Shown: piece after piece, positions 8,209 through 50,268 of the stretch | Layout: each line of letters begins with the position of its first letter | Numbering within the stretch: the first letter of the stretch is position 1 | Virus record (IMG/VR): IMGVR_UViG_3300045988_091011 | Location: 50,138-114,137 of that record | Reading direction: 5' to 3' (one strand) | DNA length: 64,000 nt | DNA from: a virus | Notes under the pieces: generated by a model | The model's input: the letters and a program-made list of their open reading frames with translations, nothing else | What the model was told of the DNA's origin: nothing | Database searches by the model: none | Made by a program: the position numbers and the translations under genes

Positions 8209-8243
8209 AGATCAGGGCTCGCAGTGATGCGGGCTCTGGTTTG
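8209..8243 (+). repeat. Left subterminal hairpin repeat of the TnpB element.
   Basis: 35-bp sequence that recurs at 9609-9643 with about 5 mismatches. Internal palindrome cagggc...gctctg. Confidence 0.65.
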
Positions 8244-8378
8244 TTTTAAGAAGTATTAAAATATTTGCTATTTAAGATCCTGTTCCTATTTTTGTTCCAG
8301 AAACAATGAACGACGAGATGGTGTAATATTTTGCTCATCTTATTAAAAATGATTATATTCATATCATAAATCATTCAA

Positions 8379-9566
8379 ATGAGATTAGTTGAAAGACATA
8401 TAGTTAAAGACAACCGTTTTGAGGATATTTGCCTCAAATCAGGTTTGTTGTACAATTATGTTCTTTACAATATCCGTCAAGAAATATTTTCTGGTAACTA
8501 TTTAAAGGAATTTGATTTATCAAACAAACTTTGCAAAGAAAACCAATTCGATTTCAGGAATTTGCCTAATCATGTTTCACAGCAGGTGATTAAACAGGTA
8601 TTTAAAAATATAAAATCCTGGATGAGATTAAAGAAAGATTTTGAAAAGAATCCTTCAAAATATGGTAATCATCGTCCTCATCTACCTTCATACAAACGAG
8701 GTAAGAAACAAAACATGGTTGTTTTTACTAACTGTGATTGCAGGATAAAAGATGATAATCATATTCATTTTGTTAAAAACGTGATCGAATCAATCAAAAC
8801 AAATGTAAAGAAAGATGAATTAAAACAAGTTAGAATCATACCTCAAGCTACCTGTTATGTAGTAGAGGTAGTTTATGAAAGAAAGGAAGCTGATCTTGGT
8901 TTAGATAAAGACAATTTTCTTTCGATTGATTTAGGATTGAATAATTTATGTTCATGTATTAGTAATGTAGTTAATTCTTTCATTATAAACGGACGGGTTA
9001 TGAAATCAGTAAATCAGTGGTACAATAAGAAGAAAGCTAAGTTGATGTCTTTTATTGGTAATAAGGGAACTTCGAATAGGATAAGAAGAATTACTTTGTT
9101 TAGAAATTGTTGGATAGAAGACAAGTTGCATAAGATCGGTAGATATATTGTCAACTTCTGTAGATCAAACAATATAGGAACAATCATCATCGGATTAAAC
9201 AAAGAATGGAAAAACGAGATAAATATTGGTAAAAGGAATAACCAACATTTTGTTTCTATTCCTCATTCTAAGTTAATAGATAAGATTGTTTACAAAGCAA
9301 AGTTATTAGGAATTAATGTTGTTATACATGAAGAATCTTATACATCAAAGATTGATCATCTTGCTTTTGAGCCTCTAAAGAAACAAGAATCCTACTTAGG
9401 TAGAAGGAAGAAACGTGGATTGTTCCAAAGTTCTATTGGAAAGTTGATAAATGCAGATATCAATGGAGCTATAGGAATAGCAAGAAAAGTAGTCGGTGAT
9501 TCTTTCATTGGAAAGATAATCGATAGTGGGTTCGTGTTTAATCCAGTTAGATTAAATATTTTGTAA
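8379..9566 (+). CDS. tnpB: TnpB-like RuvC nuclease (OMEGA effector), 395 aa, lacking the usual CxxC...CxxC zinc finger.
   Basis: RuvC-I LSIDLGLNNL, RuvC-II VVIHEESYTSKID and RuvC-III INADINGAIGIARK read in the translation. No Cys occurs between RuvC-II and RuvC-III. Flanked by the IS hairpin repeats. Confidence 0.75.
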   Translation: MRLVERHIVKDNRFEDICLKSGLLYNYVLYNIRQEIFSGNYLKEFDLSNKLCKENQFDFRNLPNHVSQQVIKQVFKNIKSWMRLKKDFEKNPSKYGNHRPHLPSYKRGKKQNMVVFTNCDCRIKDDNHIHFVKNVIESIKTNVKKDELKQVRIIPQATCYVVEVVYERKEADLGLDKDNFLSIDLGLNNLCSCISNVVNSFIINGRVMKSVNQWYNKKKAKLMSFIGNKGTSNRIRRITLFRNCWIEDKLHKIGRYIVNFCRSNNIGTIIIGLNKEWKNEINIGKRNNQHFVSIPHSKLIDKIVYKAKLLGINVVIHEESYTSKIDHLAFEPLKKQESYLGRRKKRGLFQSSIGKLINADINGAIGIARKVVGDSFIGKIIDSGFVFNPVRLNIL

Positions 9567-9608: not shown

Positions 9609-9643
9609 AGATCAGGGATAGCAGTGATGCGGGCCCTGGTTTG
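9609..9643 (+). repeat. Right subterminal hairpin repeat of the TnpB element (CAGGG-16nt-CCCTG).
   Basis: Copy of the 8209-8243 repeat, 43 nt downstream of the tnpB stop. Confidence 0.65.
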
Positions 9644-9804
9644 ATTTACAGCGCTTTACCCAAAATGGGAAAAGCGTAAGTTATTGATTGTCAAGTTTTC
9701 CCCTTAAATGGGGAAAATTACTCATTGTGTATTATTTTTCTGTCTTTTCTGAAAATACTTCTCTTCTATAGGAAATAAACACACCCATATTCCACCCTGC
9801 AATC

Positions 9805-13850: not shown

Positions 13851-14492
13851 ATGGAACACGTAAAGTCCGTGTTAGAGGCATCAGTAGACTACCACTACCC
13901 GAATCATCCTGAACCTGAAGCAGAACCTGGAGACATGGGAGAGGTTTCTGATGGATACCATACTTTCAATGAATTGTATCGGTACCGCATGTTGTATAAC
14001 GCCGCCTTCTTTAATCTATTAGCCAGAAACGGACAGGTTGAAGTTTGCAAATCAAGAAAGCACAGTGACGGAGAAAAATGCTTCGGTTCTGATGATTGGT
14101 TTATTGTGATGGCGATCCTACCTACCGGTCAGGTATCTAATCACTATGAAAGCAAATACTGGGATTTGTTTGATGTTCCTGAAAGAGAAACCGCTTTCGA
14201 ATACGATGGCCATACACCAAATGAAGCTGCCGACAGACTTGAACAGTATCTTAATCAAAAGAAGTCAGGTTTAACATTTGAAGAAGCTTTTAAATTCCTG
14301 AAAGGTGGTAATATGATCAAAAGACGTGGATGGAAAAATGAACATCTTGATGCTTTTAGAAGAAGTGGTGTTAGCTCAATTCATATGGAAAAGTCATTGA
14401 TCATAATTATAAATGAAGAAACACGGAGGCTGACATCGTGGAACCCAAGTATAGAAGATATATCGTCGAATGATTGGGAGATTACGAAATGA
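13851..14492 (+). CDS. Hypothetical protein (about 213 aa from ATG 13851; the track's 13803 start is a TTG).
   Basis: ORF. A short 34-aa ORF (13727-13828) lies just upstream. Confidence 0.55.
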   Translation: MEHVKSVLEASVDYHYPNHPEPEAEPGDMGEVSDGYHTFNELYRYRMLYNAAFFNLLARNGQVEVCKSRKHSDGEKCFGSDDWFIVMAILPTGQVSNHYESKYWDLFDVPERETAFEYDGHTPNEAADRLEQYLNQKKSGLTFEEAFKFLKGGNMIKRRGWKNEHLDAFRRSGVSSIHMEKSLIIIINEETRRLTSWNPSIEDISSNDWEITK

Positions 14493-23168: not shown

Positions 23169-24038
23169 GTGAACTCTGTTAAGTTTGATTTTAAAAACAA
23201 CAGAGTTAAGATTCCTATCATTGGTTGGGTAAAGTTTTTTGCCAATCGGTCTTTTGAAGGAAAGATTGGTACGATAACAATATCCAAATCATCAACCGGT
23301 AAGTTCTATGCAAGCATTATAGTAGATGACGGAATCCCCAATCCTGACAAATTTGCTATCAATTCCGATACAACAGTAGGAATCGATGTGGGAATTAAGG
23401 ATTTCTCCGTCCTTTCCAACGGCCAGGTTTTTAGTAATCCGAAGTATTTTGAATCTGCGCAGAAAAGATTAGGGTGCTTGCAAAGAAGAATGTCTCGTAG
23501 AAAAAAAGGAAGCAACCGATACAAGAAGGCAAAGCATGATGTTGCCGTATGTCACGAACGGATTCGAAACCGTAGACAGGATTTTTTACATAAGGTTAGC
23601 AAGAGGATAGTAAGTGAGAACCAAACTATTATCATCGAAGATCTTAATGTAGGAGGCATGTTAAAAAATCATTGCCTTGCTAAGAGAATTGCTTCTGCAT
23701 CATGGAGCGAGTTCTTTAGGATGCTGCAATATAAATCAGATTGGCGCGGTGTTAATTTAATTCGGATCGGAAGATTCGAGCCAAGTTCTAAGATGTGCGG
23801 ATGTGGGTATATTCATCGTGATCTTAAATTATCGGATCGTATTTGGACTTGTCCTGAATGTGGCGCCGTCAATGATCGTGATTTACTTGCAGCGAATAAC
23901 ATTAAAAGATTTGGGTTAGAAAAACAGAATCTTCTAACCCAAGAAAATATTAACAAGACACCGGTGGTGAACCGGGAAGGGGACGTGGAGTTGCCTACGT
24001 TGGTAGGAACGGTGAAGCGTCAAAATGTACTGGTGTAA
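23169..24038 (+). pseudogene. tnpB: 5'-truncated ISDra2-like tnpB remnant (289 aa from a GTG; about 115 N-terminal residues missing).
   Basis: Retains RuvC-I GIDVGIKDF, a block (NPKYFESAQKRL...RRKKGSNRYKKAKH...RRQDFLHK) that I recall as characteristic of ISDra2 TnpB, RuvC-II IIIEDLN, the zinc finger CGCGY...CPECG and RuvC-III NDRDLLAANNI. An in-frame stop at 23121 means no WED/REC N-terminus is present. Confidence 0.7.
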
Positions 24039-31435: not shown

Positions 31436-31779
31436 AAGTCATTGTCTTTAAATCCTTCCGGGTAATATACGACATACTTCTTACCGTCTTCTGGTGTCAT
31501 GGCAAACTGCATGTAGTTATTACGATTACGATGTTTACCATCCAATCCTCGTTTCCAATACAGTATCCCGTCTATATCCACATAAGATCGGCCCCGTTCG
31601 GCTCTAACTACGTCCGTGTGTAGCAGATACCCGTCGGAAGACACGATCCATACTTTATCACCTTTGTTTAAATAAGATATTCTTTTTCTTACAACAACCT
31701 TTTTCTTATTATCCAATACAAATTCCTCGTCAGTCATACTCTTCATCCTCCTCTTCTTCTGTTTCAAAATCAATTCCAT
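31432..31779 (-). CDS. Hypothetical protein, 115 aa.
   Basis: Co-oriented ORF with ATGA overlap to the nuclease gene. Confidence 0.5.
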   Translation of the reverse strand: MELILKQKKRRMKSMTDEEFVLDNKKKVVVRKRISYLNKGDKVWIVSSDGYLLHTDVVRAERGRSYVDIDGILYWKRGLDGKHRNRNNYMQFAMTPEDGKKYVVYYPEGFKDNDL

Positions 31780-31902
31780 ATCCCATATTCTATTAAATAT
31801 ATTTAAAGCTATTCGTATGTTTTAATACATCCCCTCGGAGACCTTTCGGTCTCCTTGGTAGATGTAAATCCCGTTAGGGATAAGTCAGGATTTCTCCTGT
31901 AA

Positions 31903-32090
31903 GTACCCATCGCCAATGTTATTTGAGGTTTTGAATAAGCAACACTGTTCCTGAATACCAGAACTGTTTAATCACTTACCTTAGAGCTACAGACTTGGGC
32001 AAACATCCGTAGGTAACTATCTATTCTTAAATAACGTAGCCTTTGTTTCAAGGCTTAGGCTAATAACCCGATCTCTTAAAGAGATGTATT
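31903..32090 (-). ncRNA. Partner-less second copy of the IscB-associated omegaRNA-like scaffold (about 164-nt conserved core plus a divergent terminal hairpin).
   Basis: About 93% identical to 43678-43843. The stem AGCCTT/AAGGCT here is replaced by AGTGTT/AACACT in the other copy, a compensatory change. Lies in a 520-bp non-coding gap. Strand inferred from iscB orientation. Confidence 0.35.
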
Positions 32091-32302
32091 AAACTTTTAT
32101 AATAGAATTATATTGGTTTAATACTATTTGGGGTTATAACACTGATCATAATGATTGGTCAGTTCTTCTGGTTCTAAATCTTGTCCAAAATCCATGTTAA
32201 AAATATCGTAATTAGTAAAGCACTGTTCCTGCCGGCAGGAAATCTATGAATGCTGCTTTTGCTTCTTCAATTAGGCCCAAGTGTAACCTTGGGCCATTGT
32301 AT

Positions 32303-34771: not shown

Positions 34772-35472
34772 TGCTTTCTAATTTTGTTAAATAAATACGT
34801 TTTTATGTTTTTCAATCGCTCTTTGTCTGTTTCAGAACTTCCGGTAAACAAATAATCCGGATTGCCTTTAGCCGGCGGCGTAGGCAATTTAGATACGGCA
34901 AACAACCAATCCATTTCCTTATTCTTCTTAGACTCCAAATAAGGCTCGGTAGCGATCTTAAATTTTTCAGCTATTAAGTTAAAGAGCTTTGAATTTTTAA
35001 GGTTCATATGGACTGAAAAAGCCTGAGAAGGCGGTTTCCATATGAAGTTACATAAGCTCATTGTATAATCTCCTGACTCTGCTATATAAGATTCCGTTAC
35101 CTGAAGTATGACCTCTTTCTTGAATGAGGTGTTACCCATAAACCAACACAATCTGGATTCCGCTTCTTTTCTGCTGACACCTATGTCTTTTGAATATGAT
35201 TCGTACATTCCTATCATAATCTTCAACGTTTCCAGAACCTCGTCCGTCATTTCCGGTGTCTCTATATAATTCACAAAAGACGTTCCTTTGTTGGTTAATC
35301 TCATCACGCCTGATTTTAATTTCTCAACCAGGCCAAGCTCTATATACCTCCCAGCATCTTCTTCCGGCATGGCTTCGATCATAACCGTATCCTTCTGTCT
35401 TATGGCAAGAAGATTAGCAAGATCATTAGGAGTCATGTCTGATGCTGCAAGTTGTCTGAAATTGATGTACAT
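34759..35472 (-). CDS. Hypothetical protein, 237 aa.
   Basis: Co-oriented ORF immediately upstream of the ACP-like gene. Confidence 0.6.
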   Translation of the reverse strand: MYINFRQLAASDMTPNDLANLLAIRQKDTVMIEAMPEEDAGRYIELGLVEKLKSGVMRLTNKGTSFVNYIETPEMTDEVLETLKIMIGMYESYSKDIGVSRKEAESRLCWFMGNTSFKKEVILQVTESYIAESGDYTMSLCNFIWKPPSQAFSVHMNLKNSKLFNLIAEKFKIATEPYLESKKNKEMDWLFAVSKLPTPPAKGNPDYLFTGSSETDKERLKNIKTYLFNKIRKQWKK

Positions 35473-41913: not shown

Positions 41914-42373
41914 TCTTCTTCTCGCCTAATTTTTCAGCTCCCTTCTGAAGATCATATTTGAATACGTCAATGATCTTCGTTTCAGCAATAGCTTCGCAAT
42001 TCCAGTCGCCCAACGTACCCTGCATGCCTTTAGTCAACACAGCTTCGGCATCCTTGGGATTGCCGGCCTGGACATACATATAGCATGGTGTTTTCTTTTC
42101 TTTACCTTTCTTTTCATCCAGTGTAATGTAATTCACCTTACACTTATACCAGTACTCAGCTTCTCCGTTGAAGAAGATTTCCGACACTTTAATAGGATTA
42201 ATTTTTACAACCTCGAAAGAATTGTACAAATCCTTAAAGATCTCCAACGATCTTGATTCTGCCTCTGTGTAAGACAAGGCATCTACCAAATACTTTTCAG
42301 TTACTTTCTTTTTTTTGCCGTTCTCGATATTATCAATCTCGGCTTTTACTGTGATTTCAAACCAACGATTCAT
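41903..42373 (-). CDS. Hypothetical protein (about 156 aa from ATG 42373; the track start 42400 is a TTG).
   Basis: ORF immediately downstream of iscB. Confidence 0.5.
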   Translation of the reverse strand: MNRWFEITVKAEIDNIENGKKKKVTEKYLVDALSYTEAESRSLEIFKDLYNSFEVVKINPIKVSEIFFNGEAEYWYKCKVNYITLDEKKGKEKKTPCYMYVQAGNPKDAEAVLTKGMQGTLGDWNCEAIAETKIIDVFKYDLQKGAEKLGEKKSEE

Positions 42374-42396
42374 GTCTATATTTTTATTCAAATTAA

Positions 42397-43623
42397 TCAA
42401 TCCATTTCCTTTTGTACCATAAAGCGTTTACACCTTGATAATTTCAATTTCTTGTATGTAATATCTCTTTGGTTTTTACCATCAATATCTCGAATATTAA
42501 AACTACCGGTTTTACGCCTTGCGAATATAAAATAATAACTGTTTTCAAACATAACCCTATCAAACAATCGGAAACCAAAAACTTCAAAAGGAGATTGATT
42601 TGGTCTTTTTATCCCTCCTTTTGGAATCTTTTGTTTATGGATCTGACGATTATGTCTTCTTACTAATCTTACTTTATAATAATATCCTAACCTTATAGCA
42701 TCAAAGTTTTTAGAAATAACAAATGCATCGAAAACATGAGATTTTTCAATACCATGTTTAATCCTATTGTATTTTGTAACATAACCGAAAGTCATAGAAA
42801 CTCTGTTGTATTTAGACCTTAGTTCTTCATACAATCTCCATTTCATTATTCCCATTACGGCTGCGTCGCGAAGCGACGATCCCCGTTTGATCTTTAAATC
42901 TATATTACCTTTATGGTATTCTTTATGACAAGTTTCACATAAGGTAATAAGATTAGATGGGGAATCTCCACCTGTCTTTCGTGATTCAATATGATGAACA
43001 TTCAATACTGGGTCTTTTGACTTTCCCTTACAATGCTGGCATTTATGTCCATCTCTTGCTAAAACATATTCCCTAACGTTCCAAAATCCAAGTTGATCAC
43101 CCTCCTGATATTCTTTACCTGATATATTAGGATTGTTAATCTTTTGAGTATCAAATTGAGCTACTTCGATAACAATACGAGATATTGGTAATATAGAACA
43201 TACATTGTCAATAACACGAATATGGGCGTCTACTTTGTATTTCACCGAAGGTGCTACCCATCCCGGACGCTTACTTTTTATTCTATTATCAAAACGAGGT
43301 TTTCTATATCTCAATCTATTTCGTCTTGTTTTCCGTAGCTCCCTTCTGGTAGACAAAAGATCTACGATATCATTTCTAAGAATAACTTCACTGCTGTAAA
43401 GTTCTTTGCTTTTCGTCGTTGCTGATAGACCAACGTGTTTAGTTCCAGCATCAACGCCTAACACAATTTCTTGTTTGTAATCAGATGTTACGTACGTTAA
43501 TTTGATGGTAAACGGACATAGGTTTACAACGACTGCCTTTTTGTCTTTAAGCAATCGCCTAACCTTTCCATGCCTTGTTGTAGGCATCAAAGGTTTACCA
43601 TTTATGTCTTGTACGTACACCAT
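42397..43623 (-). CDS. iscB: IscB OMEGA nuclease (PLMP, split RuvC and HNH domains), 408 aa, catalytic motifs intact.
   Basis: PLMP motif GKPLMPTTRHGKVRRLL. RuvC-I VLGVDAGTKHVGLS. Arg-rich bridge helix RRELRKTRRNRLRYRKPRF. RuvC-II IVIEVAQFD. HNH CQHCKGK...NVHHIESRKTGGDSPSNLITLCETCH. RuvC-III HVFDAFVISKNF. Confidence 0.85.
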   Translation of the reverse strand: MVYVQDINGKPLMPTTRHGKVRRLLKDKKAVVVNLCPFTIKLTYVTSDYKQEIVLGVDAGTKHVGLSATTKSKELYSSEVILRNDIVDLLSTRRELRKTRRNRLRYRKPRFDNRIKSKRPGWVAPSVKYKVDAHIRVIDNVCSILPISRIVIEVAQFDTQKINNPNISGKEYQEGDQLGFWNVREYVLARDGHKCQHCKGKSKDPVLNVHHIESRKTGGDSPSNLITLCETCHKEYHKGNIDLKIKRGSSLRDAAVMGIMKWRLYEELRSKYNRVSMTFGYVTKYNRIKHGIEKSHVFDAFVISKNFDAIRLGYYYKVRLVRRHNRQIHKQKIPKGGIKRPNQSPFEVFGFRLFDRVMFENSYYFIFARRKTGSFNIRDIDGKNQRDITYKKLKLSRCKRFMVQKEMD

Positions 43624-43639
43624 ATCTACAAACGTTTTT

Positions 43640-43880
43640 AATGTTTATTCAACATAAGTCAGAGTGAAACTCTGTTAGTACCCATCGCCAATGTTATTTA
43701 AGGTTTTTTTTGTAAGCAACACTGTTCCTGAATACCAGAACTGTTTAATCACTTACCTTAGAGCTACGAACTTGGGCAAACATCCGTAGGTAACTATCTA
43801 TTCTTAAATAACGTAGTGTTTGTTTCAACACTTAGGCTAATAATCGGAATAGCTTTTGGCTATTATGCATAATACAATAC
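43640..43880 (-). ncRNA. Candidate omegaRNA (HEARO-like) scaffold of the IscB.
   Basis: Located 5' of iscB on the same strand. Its 166-nt core 43678-43843 is conserved at a second locus, with compensatory stem changes. Multiple hairpins. Confidence 0.45.
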
Positions 43881-44081
43881 AAATTGTTTATGATTTGTAT
43901 GGGTTATGCATTATTCTCGATTATTTACTATCGTAGCCACGAAATACTTACACCCCTCTAAGTGCGTCAGGGCTTCAATCATAGCATTCTTTATCTCTTT
44001 TTCTTCCATTCTGTTTGTTTTTTGGACAAAGATATGTCTTTTGATAATAAAAAAGATTCAAAATGATTTAATTTAGCTTAA

Positions 44082-49606: not shown

Positions 49607-50268
49607 CCTCCAGTAGTGTACAAAGATACATCTTCCTCCTCTACGTTTACACCTTTAATAGCCTGTAGAAGTTTTTTCTTTGTCTCCCGGCACATATTGT
49701 AACCATATCCTTTATACCGATATGAGCGCTCCCATGTGCTTACTGGAAAAGGAATATTTTCATCAATGACCAGCCTCTTCATATGAAGATGTTCAAAGAA
49801 TTTCTCATGGTAGAGTAGTTTGTACTCGTATGCTACTATACTTGCAGATGAGAATGGAAAATAATCATCTTCCTCTTCTTCGTATTTAGGCTCCTTGTAG
49901 TAAGCCATTTTTGCCACAGTAAAGTCGAAGCTCCTGAGAATCTCTTCAGGCTTTCCGAACTCTGACTCTATGAACTCTACCCATACCTTTTCTCCCTCTT
50001 TCTGGAATGCGCATACCTTCTCATTCCTGTACTTAAATTTCCATCCTTCTTTCTGATGTTTTTTATCATTGAACAAATCAACAGCTTCCTGAAAATCGTC
50101 TTCGCTTTCAAAGAAAATATCAATATCTTTTACTCTTTCTCCGGAAAGGATATTCTTAAAACATCCACCAGCTATGAACCCCTTGTGACCTTCCATATAT
50201 TTGTCAAGCCATCTTATTTGCCAGAAATTATCTGGAGTATCTATTATAAAATTGTTCATATCATTCAT
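49597..50268 (-). CDS. Pol-beta-superfamily nucleotidyltransferase-like protein, 223 aa.
   Basis: GGCFKNILSGERVKDIDIFF fits the hG[GS]x9-13DhD pattern. A downstream acidic FDFT follows. Confidence 0.5.
   Translation of the reverse strand: MNDMNNFIIDTPDNFWQIRWLDKYMEGHKGFIAGGCFKNILSGERVKDIDIFFESEDDFQEAVDLFNDKKHQKEGWKFKYRNEKVCAFQKEGEKVWVEFIESEFGKPEEILRSFDFTVAKMAYYKEPKYEEEEDDYFPFSSASIVAYEYKLLYHEKFFEHLHMKRLVIDENIPFPVSTWERSYRYKGYGYNMCRETKKKLLQAIKGVNVEEEDVSLYTTGGWD

Follow-up and report, generated by a model that had tools for sequence, protein, structure and literature searches.

Why would a large gut phage carry the gene for an RNA-guided nuclease among its replication genes? The question is raised by an iscB gene and its omegaRNA, which together form a 1551-bp element at positions 42374..43924, (-) strand, of a 64,000-nucleotide stretch of viral DNA (positions 50,138 to 114,137 of IMG/VR record IMGVR_UViG_3300045988_091011; hereafter the window, whose numbering is used throughout). 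The element consists of the omegaRNA scaffold, iscB and a 23-nt 3' tail, and is delimited by its conservation across multiple insertion contexts. We consider it likely that this is a non-autonomous IS200/IS605-superfamily (ISC-type) OMEGA element which resides in a ~150-kb human-gut phage lineage and homes between co-infecting phages. Everything tested places it within the IscB/OMEGA family, and its workings, as reconstructed here, are those known or proposed for this family.

An intact IscB nuclease

The iscB coding sequence (42397..43623, (-) strand, stop codon included) begins with ATG and encodes 408 aa. Its product matches the NCBIfam equivalog model guided_IscB (NF040563) with 362.4 bits over residues 2-303, against a cut-off of 175, and solved IscB structures (OgeuIscB 7XHT/7UTN/8CSZ and others) match residues 1-335 with E = 1e-44 to 1e-49, the alignment to OgeuIscB itself having E~1e-47. 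In Pfam, the protein is recognized by RRXRR (204 bits) and, over residues 195-238, by HNH at 37 bits, far below the score of the IscB equivalog. The initial annotation had identified the protein as an IscB from motifs visible in the translation, and each of these motifs is present. Specifically, the PLMP motif occupies residues 11-14, as seen both in the translation and in the OgeuIscB alignment, the arginine-rich bridge helix aligns with that of OgeuIscB at about residues 93-110, and RuvC-I D58, RuvC-II E153 and RuvC-III H296 and D299 align with the OgeuIscB catalytic positions. The HNH domain follows the pattern CxxC...HH...N...CxxCH (C195/C198, H210-H211, N224, C229/C232/H233). These hallmark residues are invariant in 28 homologues, with the exception of D58, which is kept in at least 90%.

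Judged by its sequence, the insertion of HNH into RuvC is what marks the protein as an IscB, as distinct from IsrB. The ratio of nonsynonymous to synonymous substitution rates (dN/dS) of the window gene, calculated against 11 orthologues in other insertion contexts, is 0.05-0.12, a range from which we infer that iscB is under strong purifying selection with both its RuvC and HNH centres intact. The protein is predicted to carry out RNA-guided double-strand DNA cleavage that depends on a target-adjacent motif (TAM), a prediction indirectly supported by the pairing of guide and ATG in element-free alleles described below. The presence of RuvC-III and of a TAM-interacting (TI) domain had been named as decisive for the assignment; the former is there, and the latter finds no sequence alignment in residues 336-408.

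In the PHROG database, the same protein matches phrog_119, 'HNH endonuclease', at 8e-67. As such, annotators should be aware that phage families labelled 'HNH endonuclease' can hide RNA-guided nucleases.

The omegaRNA scaffold

Directly upstream of iscB lies the omegaRNA scaffold (43624..43924, (-) strand, 301 nt), which comprises a match to the Rfam HEARO family together with 5' and 3' extensions. The match to RF02033 at 43674-43866(-) covers the full-length model (1-211) with 113.1 bits and E = 1.5e-22, and ends 50 nt ahead of the iscB start. It exceeds the gathering score of 83 bits and lies on the strand on which a HEARO-type RNA had been predicted. In the 5' extension, the element's first seven bases (ATAATCG, 43924-43918) pair with the seven bases CGATTAT that precede a conserved TAGCC, forming a stem, P1, that encloses two hairpins. 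The 3' extension contributes two more hairpins, likewise conserved, which lie past the Rfam match and ahead of iscB and reach down to ~43641. This agrees with Meers et al., who noted that 3' elements are missing from RF02033 (PMC10055086).

The RNA fold is supported by covariation. The P1 stem shows covariation across three types of scaffold (ATAATCG/CGATTAT, ATAACCC/GGGTTAT and TATCCG/CGGATA), and compensatory double changes occur in 11 of 60 predicted pairs (RNAalifold, 25 related sequences), a count of modest statistical power because these sequences are closely related. An omegaRNA was furthermore found by blastn upstream of iscB in 77 of 80 related loci. The space before iscB had been described as a 460-bp non-coding segment. 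It measures 458 bp (43624-44081) and indeed contains no same-strand open reading frame (ORF) of at least 40 aa, but it is not empty: the omegaRNA scaffold, the guide, a 32-codon gene remnant (43911-44009) and the conserved upstream sequence of that gene all lie within it.

Could the element nevertheless be an inactive relic, a dead insertion that is simply carried along? Such a state would agree with the lack of a nearby transposase, with the deletion of flanking sequence at the window locus and with the existence of internally deleted copies elsewhere (L159, see below). It is highly improbable, however, in view of a full-length ORF with all catalytic residues, the low dN/dS across copies in different sites, the compensatory changes in the RNA and the many recent insertion sites.

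Boundaries of the element

The ends of the element were set by sequence conservation over at least 13 independent insertion contexts and by pairs of occupied and empty alleles, in a comparison of ~300 related viral contigs. The element starts with ATAATCG... (ATTCTCG... in a sister clade) and ends ~23 nt past the iscB stop codon. This 3' tail, TTAATTTGAATAAAAATATAGAC (42374..42396, (-) strand), is conserved past the stop in all contexts and, once inserted, directly precedes the start codon of the next gene. The three bases that follow are ATG in every one of the at least 13 contexts examined; in the window, this ATG (42371..42373, (-) strand) is the start codon of a DUF4494 gene and the likely TAM and insertion motif. 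In almost every context, a gene likewise starts with this ATG. In one context, the element is instead found upstream of a tRNA-like sequence, with a junction that is irregular by 1-2 nt.

Precise pairs of occupied and empty alleles were found at four other sites (L022 vs L030, L025 vs L051, L053 vs L046 and L057 vs L050), and all four exact insertions take the form flank / AT...element / ATG-flank, with slashes marking the junctions. The junction is ambiguous by 2 nt ('AT') at the IscB element and by 3 nt at a second, RNA-only element of the window (the solo element, described below), and a 2-bp 'AT' duplication remains compatible with the former. Both elements start at the first stem of their omegaRNA scaffolds, and their 3' tails are alike by eye.

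Two other placements of the ends were considered and rejected. A start at ATAACCC (43907), which would make TAATCGAGAATAATGC the guide, conflicts with the conservation of this 16-mer across at least 12 unrelated insertion contexts, which identifies it as scaffold and not as flank. A right end at 42413, inside the end of iscB, was suggested by BLAST against csAssE-Sib, an element-free relative of the window phage; the comparison of many contexts gives 42374, and since this is the true right end, the overlap to 42413 reflects chance AT-rich similarity.

At the window locus itself, every carrier has the element in place of ~180-280 bp of an 86-aa gene, with a left junction that varies among carriers and a right junction that is fixed. 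Several of these left junctions directly precede an ATG of the uninterrupted 86-aa gene, which suggests either that two target sites were joined by recombination between copies or that the element was retargeted. Deletion between two ATG sites, considered as a general explanation of the left-junction variants, accounts for several of them and fails for L007, L008 and L010. As a separate observation, the element's first 12-14 nt are tandemly duplicated, or extra bases are present, at the guide-side junction in L014 and L017 (TAATCGAGGATAT/TAATCGAGGATAAT).

The element had also been described as more AT-rich than its flanks. This is true of the downstream flank and not of the upstream one: the G+C content is 30-37% in the element, 38-43% at 38-42 kb and 33-35% at 44-48 kb, so that composition is a weak argument. 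The recent acquisition that it was meant to indicate is supported in another way, by the ~97 of 121 related contigs that carry an uninterrupted gene at the site.

Predicted guide and targets

Which sequence does the omegaRNA address? The flanking sequence diverges between contexts exactly at the first base of P1. As the scaffold begins with the element's first base, the guide should be the flank just upstream, that is, GTGGCTACGATAGTAA at 43925..43940 on the (-) strand, phage sequence that directly adjoins the 5' end of the scaffold. Its length of 16 nt is assumed by analogy with other IscBs. The initial annotation had sought the guide at 43870-43900, a stretch that turned out to lie inside the scaffold, which extends 5' to 43924. 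On the evidence of the junctions, ATG is the likely TAM. Previous work on IscB provides a precedent for this arrangement, in that the transposon end supplies the scaffold, the guide is located beyond this end and needs read-in transcription, and TnpA and IscB share an adjacent motif, which is TTCAT for GstIscB (PMC10055086). By our own reading of the strands, TTCAT corresponds to ATGAA on the guide strand and resembles the ATG found here.

If this assignment is correct, guide and ATG should stand side by side in genomes that lack the element. A conserved 20-nt upstream sequence, used as query, retrieved 121 related contigs, ~97 with the uninterrupted gene and 12 with the element. The 16-nt guide of the window is present exactly in 44 of the 97 empty alleles, and in 41 of these 44 it is followed by ATG (even at 19 nt); in 17 further empty alleles, it is present with one mismatch. 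The guide site is followed by ATGAAG in 78 of the 97 and by ACGAAG in the other 19, which include csAssE-Sib and read GTAAACGAAG in place of GTAAATGAAG (matching window 43925/43924). The change from ATG to ACG is synonymous and removes the ATG beside the guide match. It may represent escape from cleavage, or chance. The window genome itself contains the guide sequences of its two elements once each, followed by ATA; since this is not ATG, the genome should not be targeted by its own guides.

These matches to sibling phages support the role in inter-phage conflict that had been suggested for the element. A suggested role against the host finds no support. A search for guide plus ATG in a collection with one genome per species (185,579 species) returned a single match, in a metagenome-assembled genome (MAG) of an unrelated marine Alteromonadaceae; as ~4 chance matches are estimated for a 19-mer in 596 Gb, this is about what chance would give. 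The search for guide targets in hosts and competing phages, as proposed at the outset, has thus been productive on the phage side, and on the bacterial side has yielded one chance-level match.

The findings also raise the question whether the nuclease is a domesticated weapon, with IscB and two guides retained against sibling phages (exclusion) or the host chromosome and with copying of the element being incidental. The guides do match alleles of competitor phages, both roles are known from free-standing homing endonucleases of phages (PMC13565253), and the phage encodes other conflict genes, such as a Tad2-like protein. Such a weapon is nonetheless improbable. Its guides are insertion flanks, as in any mobile IscB, and were not selected to hit essential genes; carriers have only a truncated copy of the targeted 86-aa gene, which is thus dispensable; the host search gave nothing beyond one chance match; and the element is polymorphic and mobile, with decaying copies (L159).

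A mini-element without iscB

The initial annotation had noted a 166-nt block of the upstream segment that recurs elsewhere in the window. The repeat is real and slightly longer, with 92-94% identity between 43672-43848 and 31897-32071 over ~177 nt (143 + 36 nt), and it corresponds to a second HEARO copy. This copy, at 31899-32137(-), again matches the full-length Rfam model (111.0 bits, E = 4.9e-22) and has no IscB beside it. It forms part of an RNA-only mini-element (31780..32137, (-) strand, 358 bp), located 11.8 kb from the IscB element, which consists of an omegaRNA scaffold and a 119-nt tail. Relative to csAssE-Sib, the mini-element is a clean insertion with an ambiguity of 3 nt. Its predicted guide, CATTATGATCAGTGTT (32138..32153, (-) strand), is found at the empty site of csAssE-Sib, which reads ...CATTATGATCAGTGTT/ATGGAATTG. 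Directly 3' of the mini-element stands another ATG (31777..31779, (-) strand), the likely TAM and the start codon of a 115-aa gene. The exact empty target (the guide tail plus ATGGA) is present in 111 viral contigs, and the occupied junction in 14.

The mini-element is itself mobile, since it is found at a second site in L116 (IMG/VR 3300045988_118385). There, it lies inside the 86-aa gene and again directly before an ATG (...AATGAG/ATAACCCC...GGGAT/ATGGATG). A copy at the window locus in L159 (IMG/VR 3300045988_109117) carries a ~520-bp internal deletion in iscB and has the appearance of a step from the complete element towards RNA-only derivatives. Stand-alone omegaRNAs that act in trans were reportedly described already in the original OMEGA paper (Science, 2021).

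Probable spread between co-infecting phages

The element probably spreads between co-infecting phages, and its distribution across viral genomes provides the main evidence. In IMG/VR, 306 relatives of the IscB were found, of which the best 80 are 81-99% identical and mostly reside on contigs of 80-158 kb; the protein database contains at least 8000 relatives, including one cluster at 99% identity with 3063 member sequences. Three contigs (3300045988_121141, _116941 and _147128) carry two IscB copies each at different sites (L028+L037, L014+L042 and L029+L051, respectively). In the pair L029+L051, the two omegaRNAs differ in their 5' architecture.

The sequences around the window locus are informative in this respect. 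Over the 630-bp upstream flank, diversity is ~17% and alike among carriers and non-carriers, and the flank of the window is identical to that of one contig with an empty allele, whereas it differs by 6.8% from that of the nearest other occupied contig. On the right flank, a single-nucleotide polymorphism (SNP) at +9 is shared by 12 of 13 occupied and 1 of 90 empty alleles, and the SNPs at +21/+24 by 10 of 13 occupied and none of 90 empty ones; the linkage of these SNPs to the element falls along a gradient of distance. Short flanks were used for this comparison, as the region is too mosaic for long segments. Homing with co-conversion of neighbouring markers would produce such a pattern.

The available data are best explained by a model in which transcription would enter from the truncated upstream phage gene and proceed into the omegaRNA, whose 5' guide would consist of ~16 nt of phage flank (43925-43940). 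The IscB-omegaRNA complex would recognize the guide sequence when the TAM ATG comes next, an arrangement that should exist only in phage genomes without the element, or after its excision, and IscB would cut both strands there. During co-infection, the broken genome would be repaired by recombination from the element-bearing genome and the element copied in, a process which at the window locus would replace ~180 bp of a small dispensable gene. The solo omegaRNA could use the same IscB in trans at its own site. With ATG as the target motif and an AT-rich leader at the end of the element, the insertions that survive would stand directly before start codons and leave the downstream gene translatable. 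New sites would be reached only with the help of a Y1 transposase from another source. A review has put forward non-restorative homing of OMEGA elements, with co-infecting phages or plasmids as the recipients (PMC13565253).

Alternatively, IscB may do no more than maintain the transposon. The element would be excised and re-inserted by a Y1 TnpA of the host or of the remaining phage genome, and IscB would cut the vacated donor joint in a sister genome and so restore the lost copy, without any spread between phages. This is the role that has been demonstrated for IscB/TnpB in Geobacillus (PMC10055086), a transposase must have acted at some stage to create the at least 13 distinct and precise insertion sites, and precise excision would join ...GATAGTAA to ATGAATCG, itself a target made up of guide and ATG. 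On its own, this account is nevertheless unlikely. None of the 61 ORFs in the 64-kb window that encode 95-280 aa matches Y1 TnpA (PF01797); dozens of sibling genomes hold standing alleles that match the guides and were never occupied; and the same element is found on very different backbones, the closest relatives of which are empty. The two models are compatible, and maintenance of this kind could operate alongside homing.

Several points weigh against homing as set out here. First, the missing transposase affects this model as well, in that it leaves the origin of new insertions unexplained; the absence of Y1 is typical of the family, as tnpA is found nearby for only ~1.5% of iscB genes (PMC10055086). 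Second, the window element is not a clean insertion but replaces ~180 bp of the 86-aa gene, and the left junctions of L007 (ACG), L010 (TAG) and L008 have no abutting ATG in empty alleles. Third, guide length and TAM are read from the junctions only, and the enrichment of ATG could partly stem from selection for insertions in front of genes; the tRNA-like context speaks against selection as the sole cause, though its junction is off by 1-2 nt. Fourth, common descent combined with ordinary recombination could also account for the linkage of the flanking SNPs. Finally, the TAM-interacting domain does not align by sequence: the profile search against solved IscBs stops at residue 335, and phmmer with the C-terminal 73 residues (336-408) alone returned no match. 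The AlphaFold (AF2) model is poor (pLDDT, the predicted local distance difference test score, of 45), having been built from a shallow alignment of 79-96% identity, and a fold search with it recovers IscB structures only at meaningless template-modelling (TM) scores. Within this model, residues 350-398 form a small beta domain (pLDDT 72-79), the structural matches of which are Tudor/SH3-like folds.

A bolder reading, which we regard as tentative and on the whole doubtful, would see the IscB/omegaRNA family as RNA-guided gene drives between co-infecting gut viruses. Under this joint reading, use of the start codon ATG as TAM would allow landing before any gene without silencing it; RNA-only mini-elements would provide extra guides in trans, so that a virus would naturally possess several guides for one nuclease; repeated loss of sequence on the guide side would re-programme the target; and the synonymous ATG-to-ACG changes in 19 of 97 empty alleles would be escape mutations.

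Relation to known systems

The closest structural counterpart is OgeuIscB-omegaRNA, which derives from a human-gut metagenome (7XHT, 7UTN, 8CSZ) and shares with the phage system its domain order, its catalytic residues and an upstream, same-strand HEARO-type omegaRNA with a 5' guide. The phage protein is 88 residues shorter (408 vs 496 aa), lacks an insertion of ~35 residues after the bridge helix and has 73 C-terminal residues that cannot be aligned. The candidate TAM also differs, being ATG here and NWRRNA for OgeuIscB (PMC12660989), as does the residence in a phage.

In its mode of life, the element resembles the ISGst IscB of Geobacillus stearothermophilus (PMC10055086), a non-autonomous IS605-type system that likewise takes its scaffold from the transposon end and its guide from the flank, is transcribed by read-in and uses the insertion-site motif as TAM, with TTCAT, read as ATGAA, being close to ATG. 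Even the catalytic numbering is nearly identical (D58 and H209/H210 in ISGst). The ISGst IscB, however, is located on a bacterial chromosome with TnpA in the same genome (PMC10055086), whereas the present element resides on a viral replicon with no TnpA in the window, and its targets are standing alleles in sibling viruses.

The proposed behaviour is also reminiscent of free-standing phage homing endonucleases, such as T4 Seg/Mob, and of intronless homing, with a nuclease gene between conserved phage genes. In both cases, the element-free allele would be cut during co-infection, as we propose here, and nearby markers co-converted, as in the SNP gradient (for the concept, see PMC13565253). In contrast to Seg/Mob, recognition here is predicted to depend on an RNA guide and a 3-nt motif, not on protein, self would be distinguished from non-self by whether the element is there, and not by sequence polymorphism, and a trans guide, the solo omegaRNA, would extend the system to a second locus.

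HEARO/IscB has been annotated in other phages, for instance in Silviavirus (PMC13346280). There, as in phrog_119, the entries are annotations only, without boundaries, guides, TAM or population analysis. Our full-text literature search on phage IscB found no resolved boundaries, guides or candidate ATG TAM, and no placement before start codons, natural trans guide or population-level evidence of spread. Notable in the present case are the abundance and small size of the element, its simple candidate TAM, its placement just before start codons and what may be a natural trans guide. It furthermore offers a natural test for the role of iscB genes without tnpA, with the targets of both guides standing in dozens of sibling phage genomes. 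At 408 aa, very abundant in human-gut metagenomes and, if the reading of the junctions is true, with a TAM of 3 nt, the nuclease would also be of interest as a compact editor.

Genomic context

The closest public record to the window is csAssE-Sib (OR575929), a 151-kb human-gut phage with 85-97% identity that lacks both elements and has an intact 86-aa gene at the IscB site. Phages of this lineage probably infect Bacteroidota. The genes around the element encode a DNA helicase, an exonuclease, a DnaB-like helicase, a primase-like Zn-ribbon/DUF6371 protein, NinG and DUF4494, in agreement with the phage replication module that had been proposed. The interrupted gene, of 86/87 aa, is intact in csAssE-Sib and ~97 IMG/VR contigs. 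In the window, its 3' two-thirds (~180 bp) are gone, and the remnant (43911..44009, (-) strand) retains 32 codons before reaching a stop inside the element. Just upstream of this truncated gene, which would read into the omegaRNA, positions 44027-44034 read TATCTTTG. This resembles the Bacteroidota -7 promoter motif, TAnnTTTG, and belongs to a 37-nt motif containing ...GACATATCTTTGTCC... that is present at 44008-44044 and, with 73% identity, at 35157-35193.

The window also encodes a full-length TnpB-family protein of 395 aa (8379-9566, (+) strand), with matches to Pfam OrfB_IS605, a Cas12f1-like TNB domain and phrog_506 'transposase', and the phage thus carries a second kind of OMEGA nuclease. 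A 40-nt direct repeat with 90% identity flanks this gene (8209-8248 and 9609-9648). A second TnpB-family ORF at 23169-24038 (+), of 289 aa with a GTG start, has strong OrfB_IS605 and TNB matches and a short N-terminus, and may be truncated or frameshifted. The Tad2-like protein mentioned above, of 213 aa and encoded at 13851-14489 (+), combines a WDGH domain (Pfam, 5e-37) with a domain resembling the Thoeris anti-defence protein Tad2 (7e-11).

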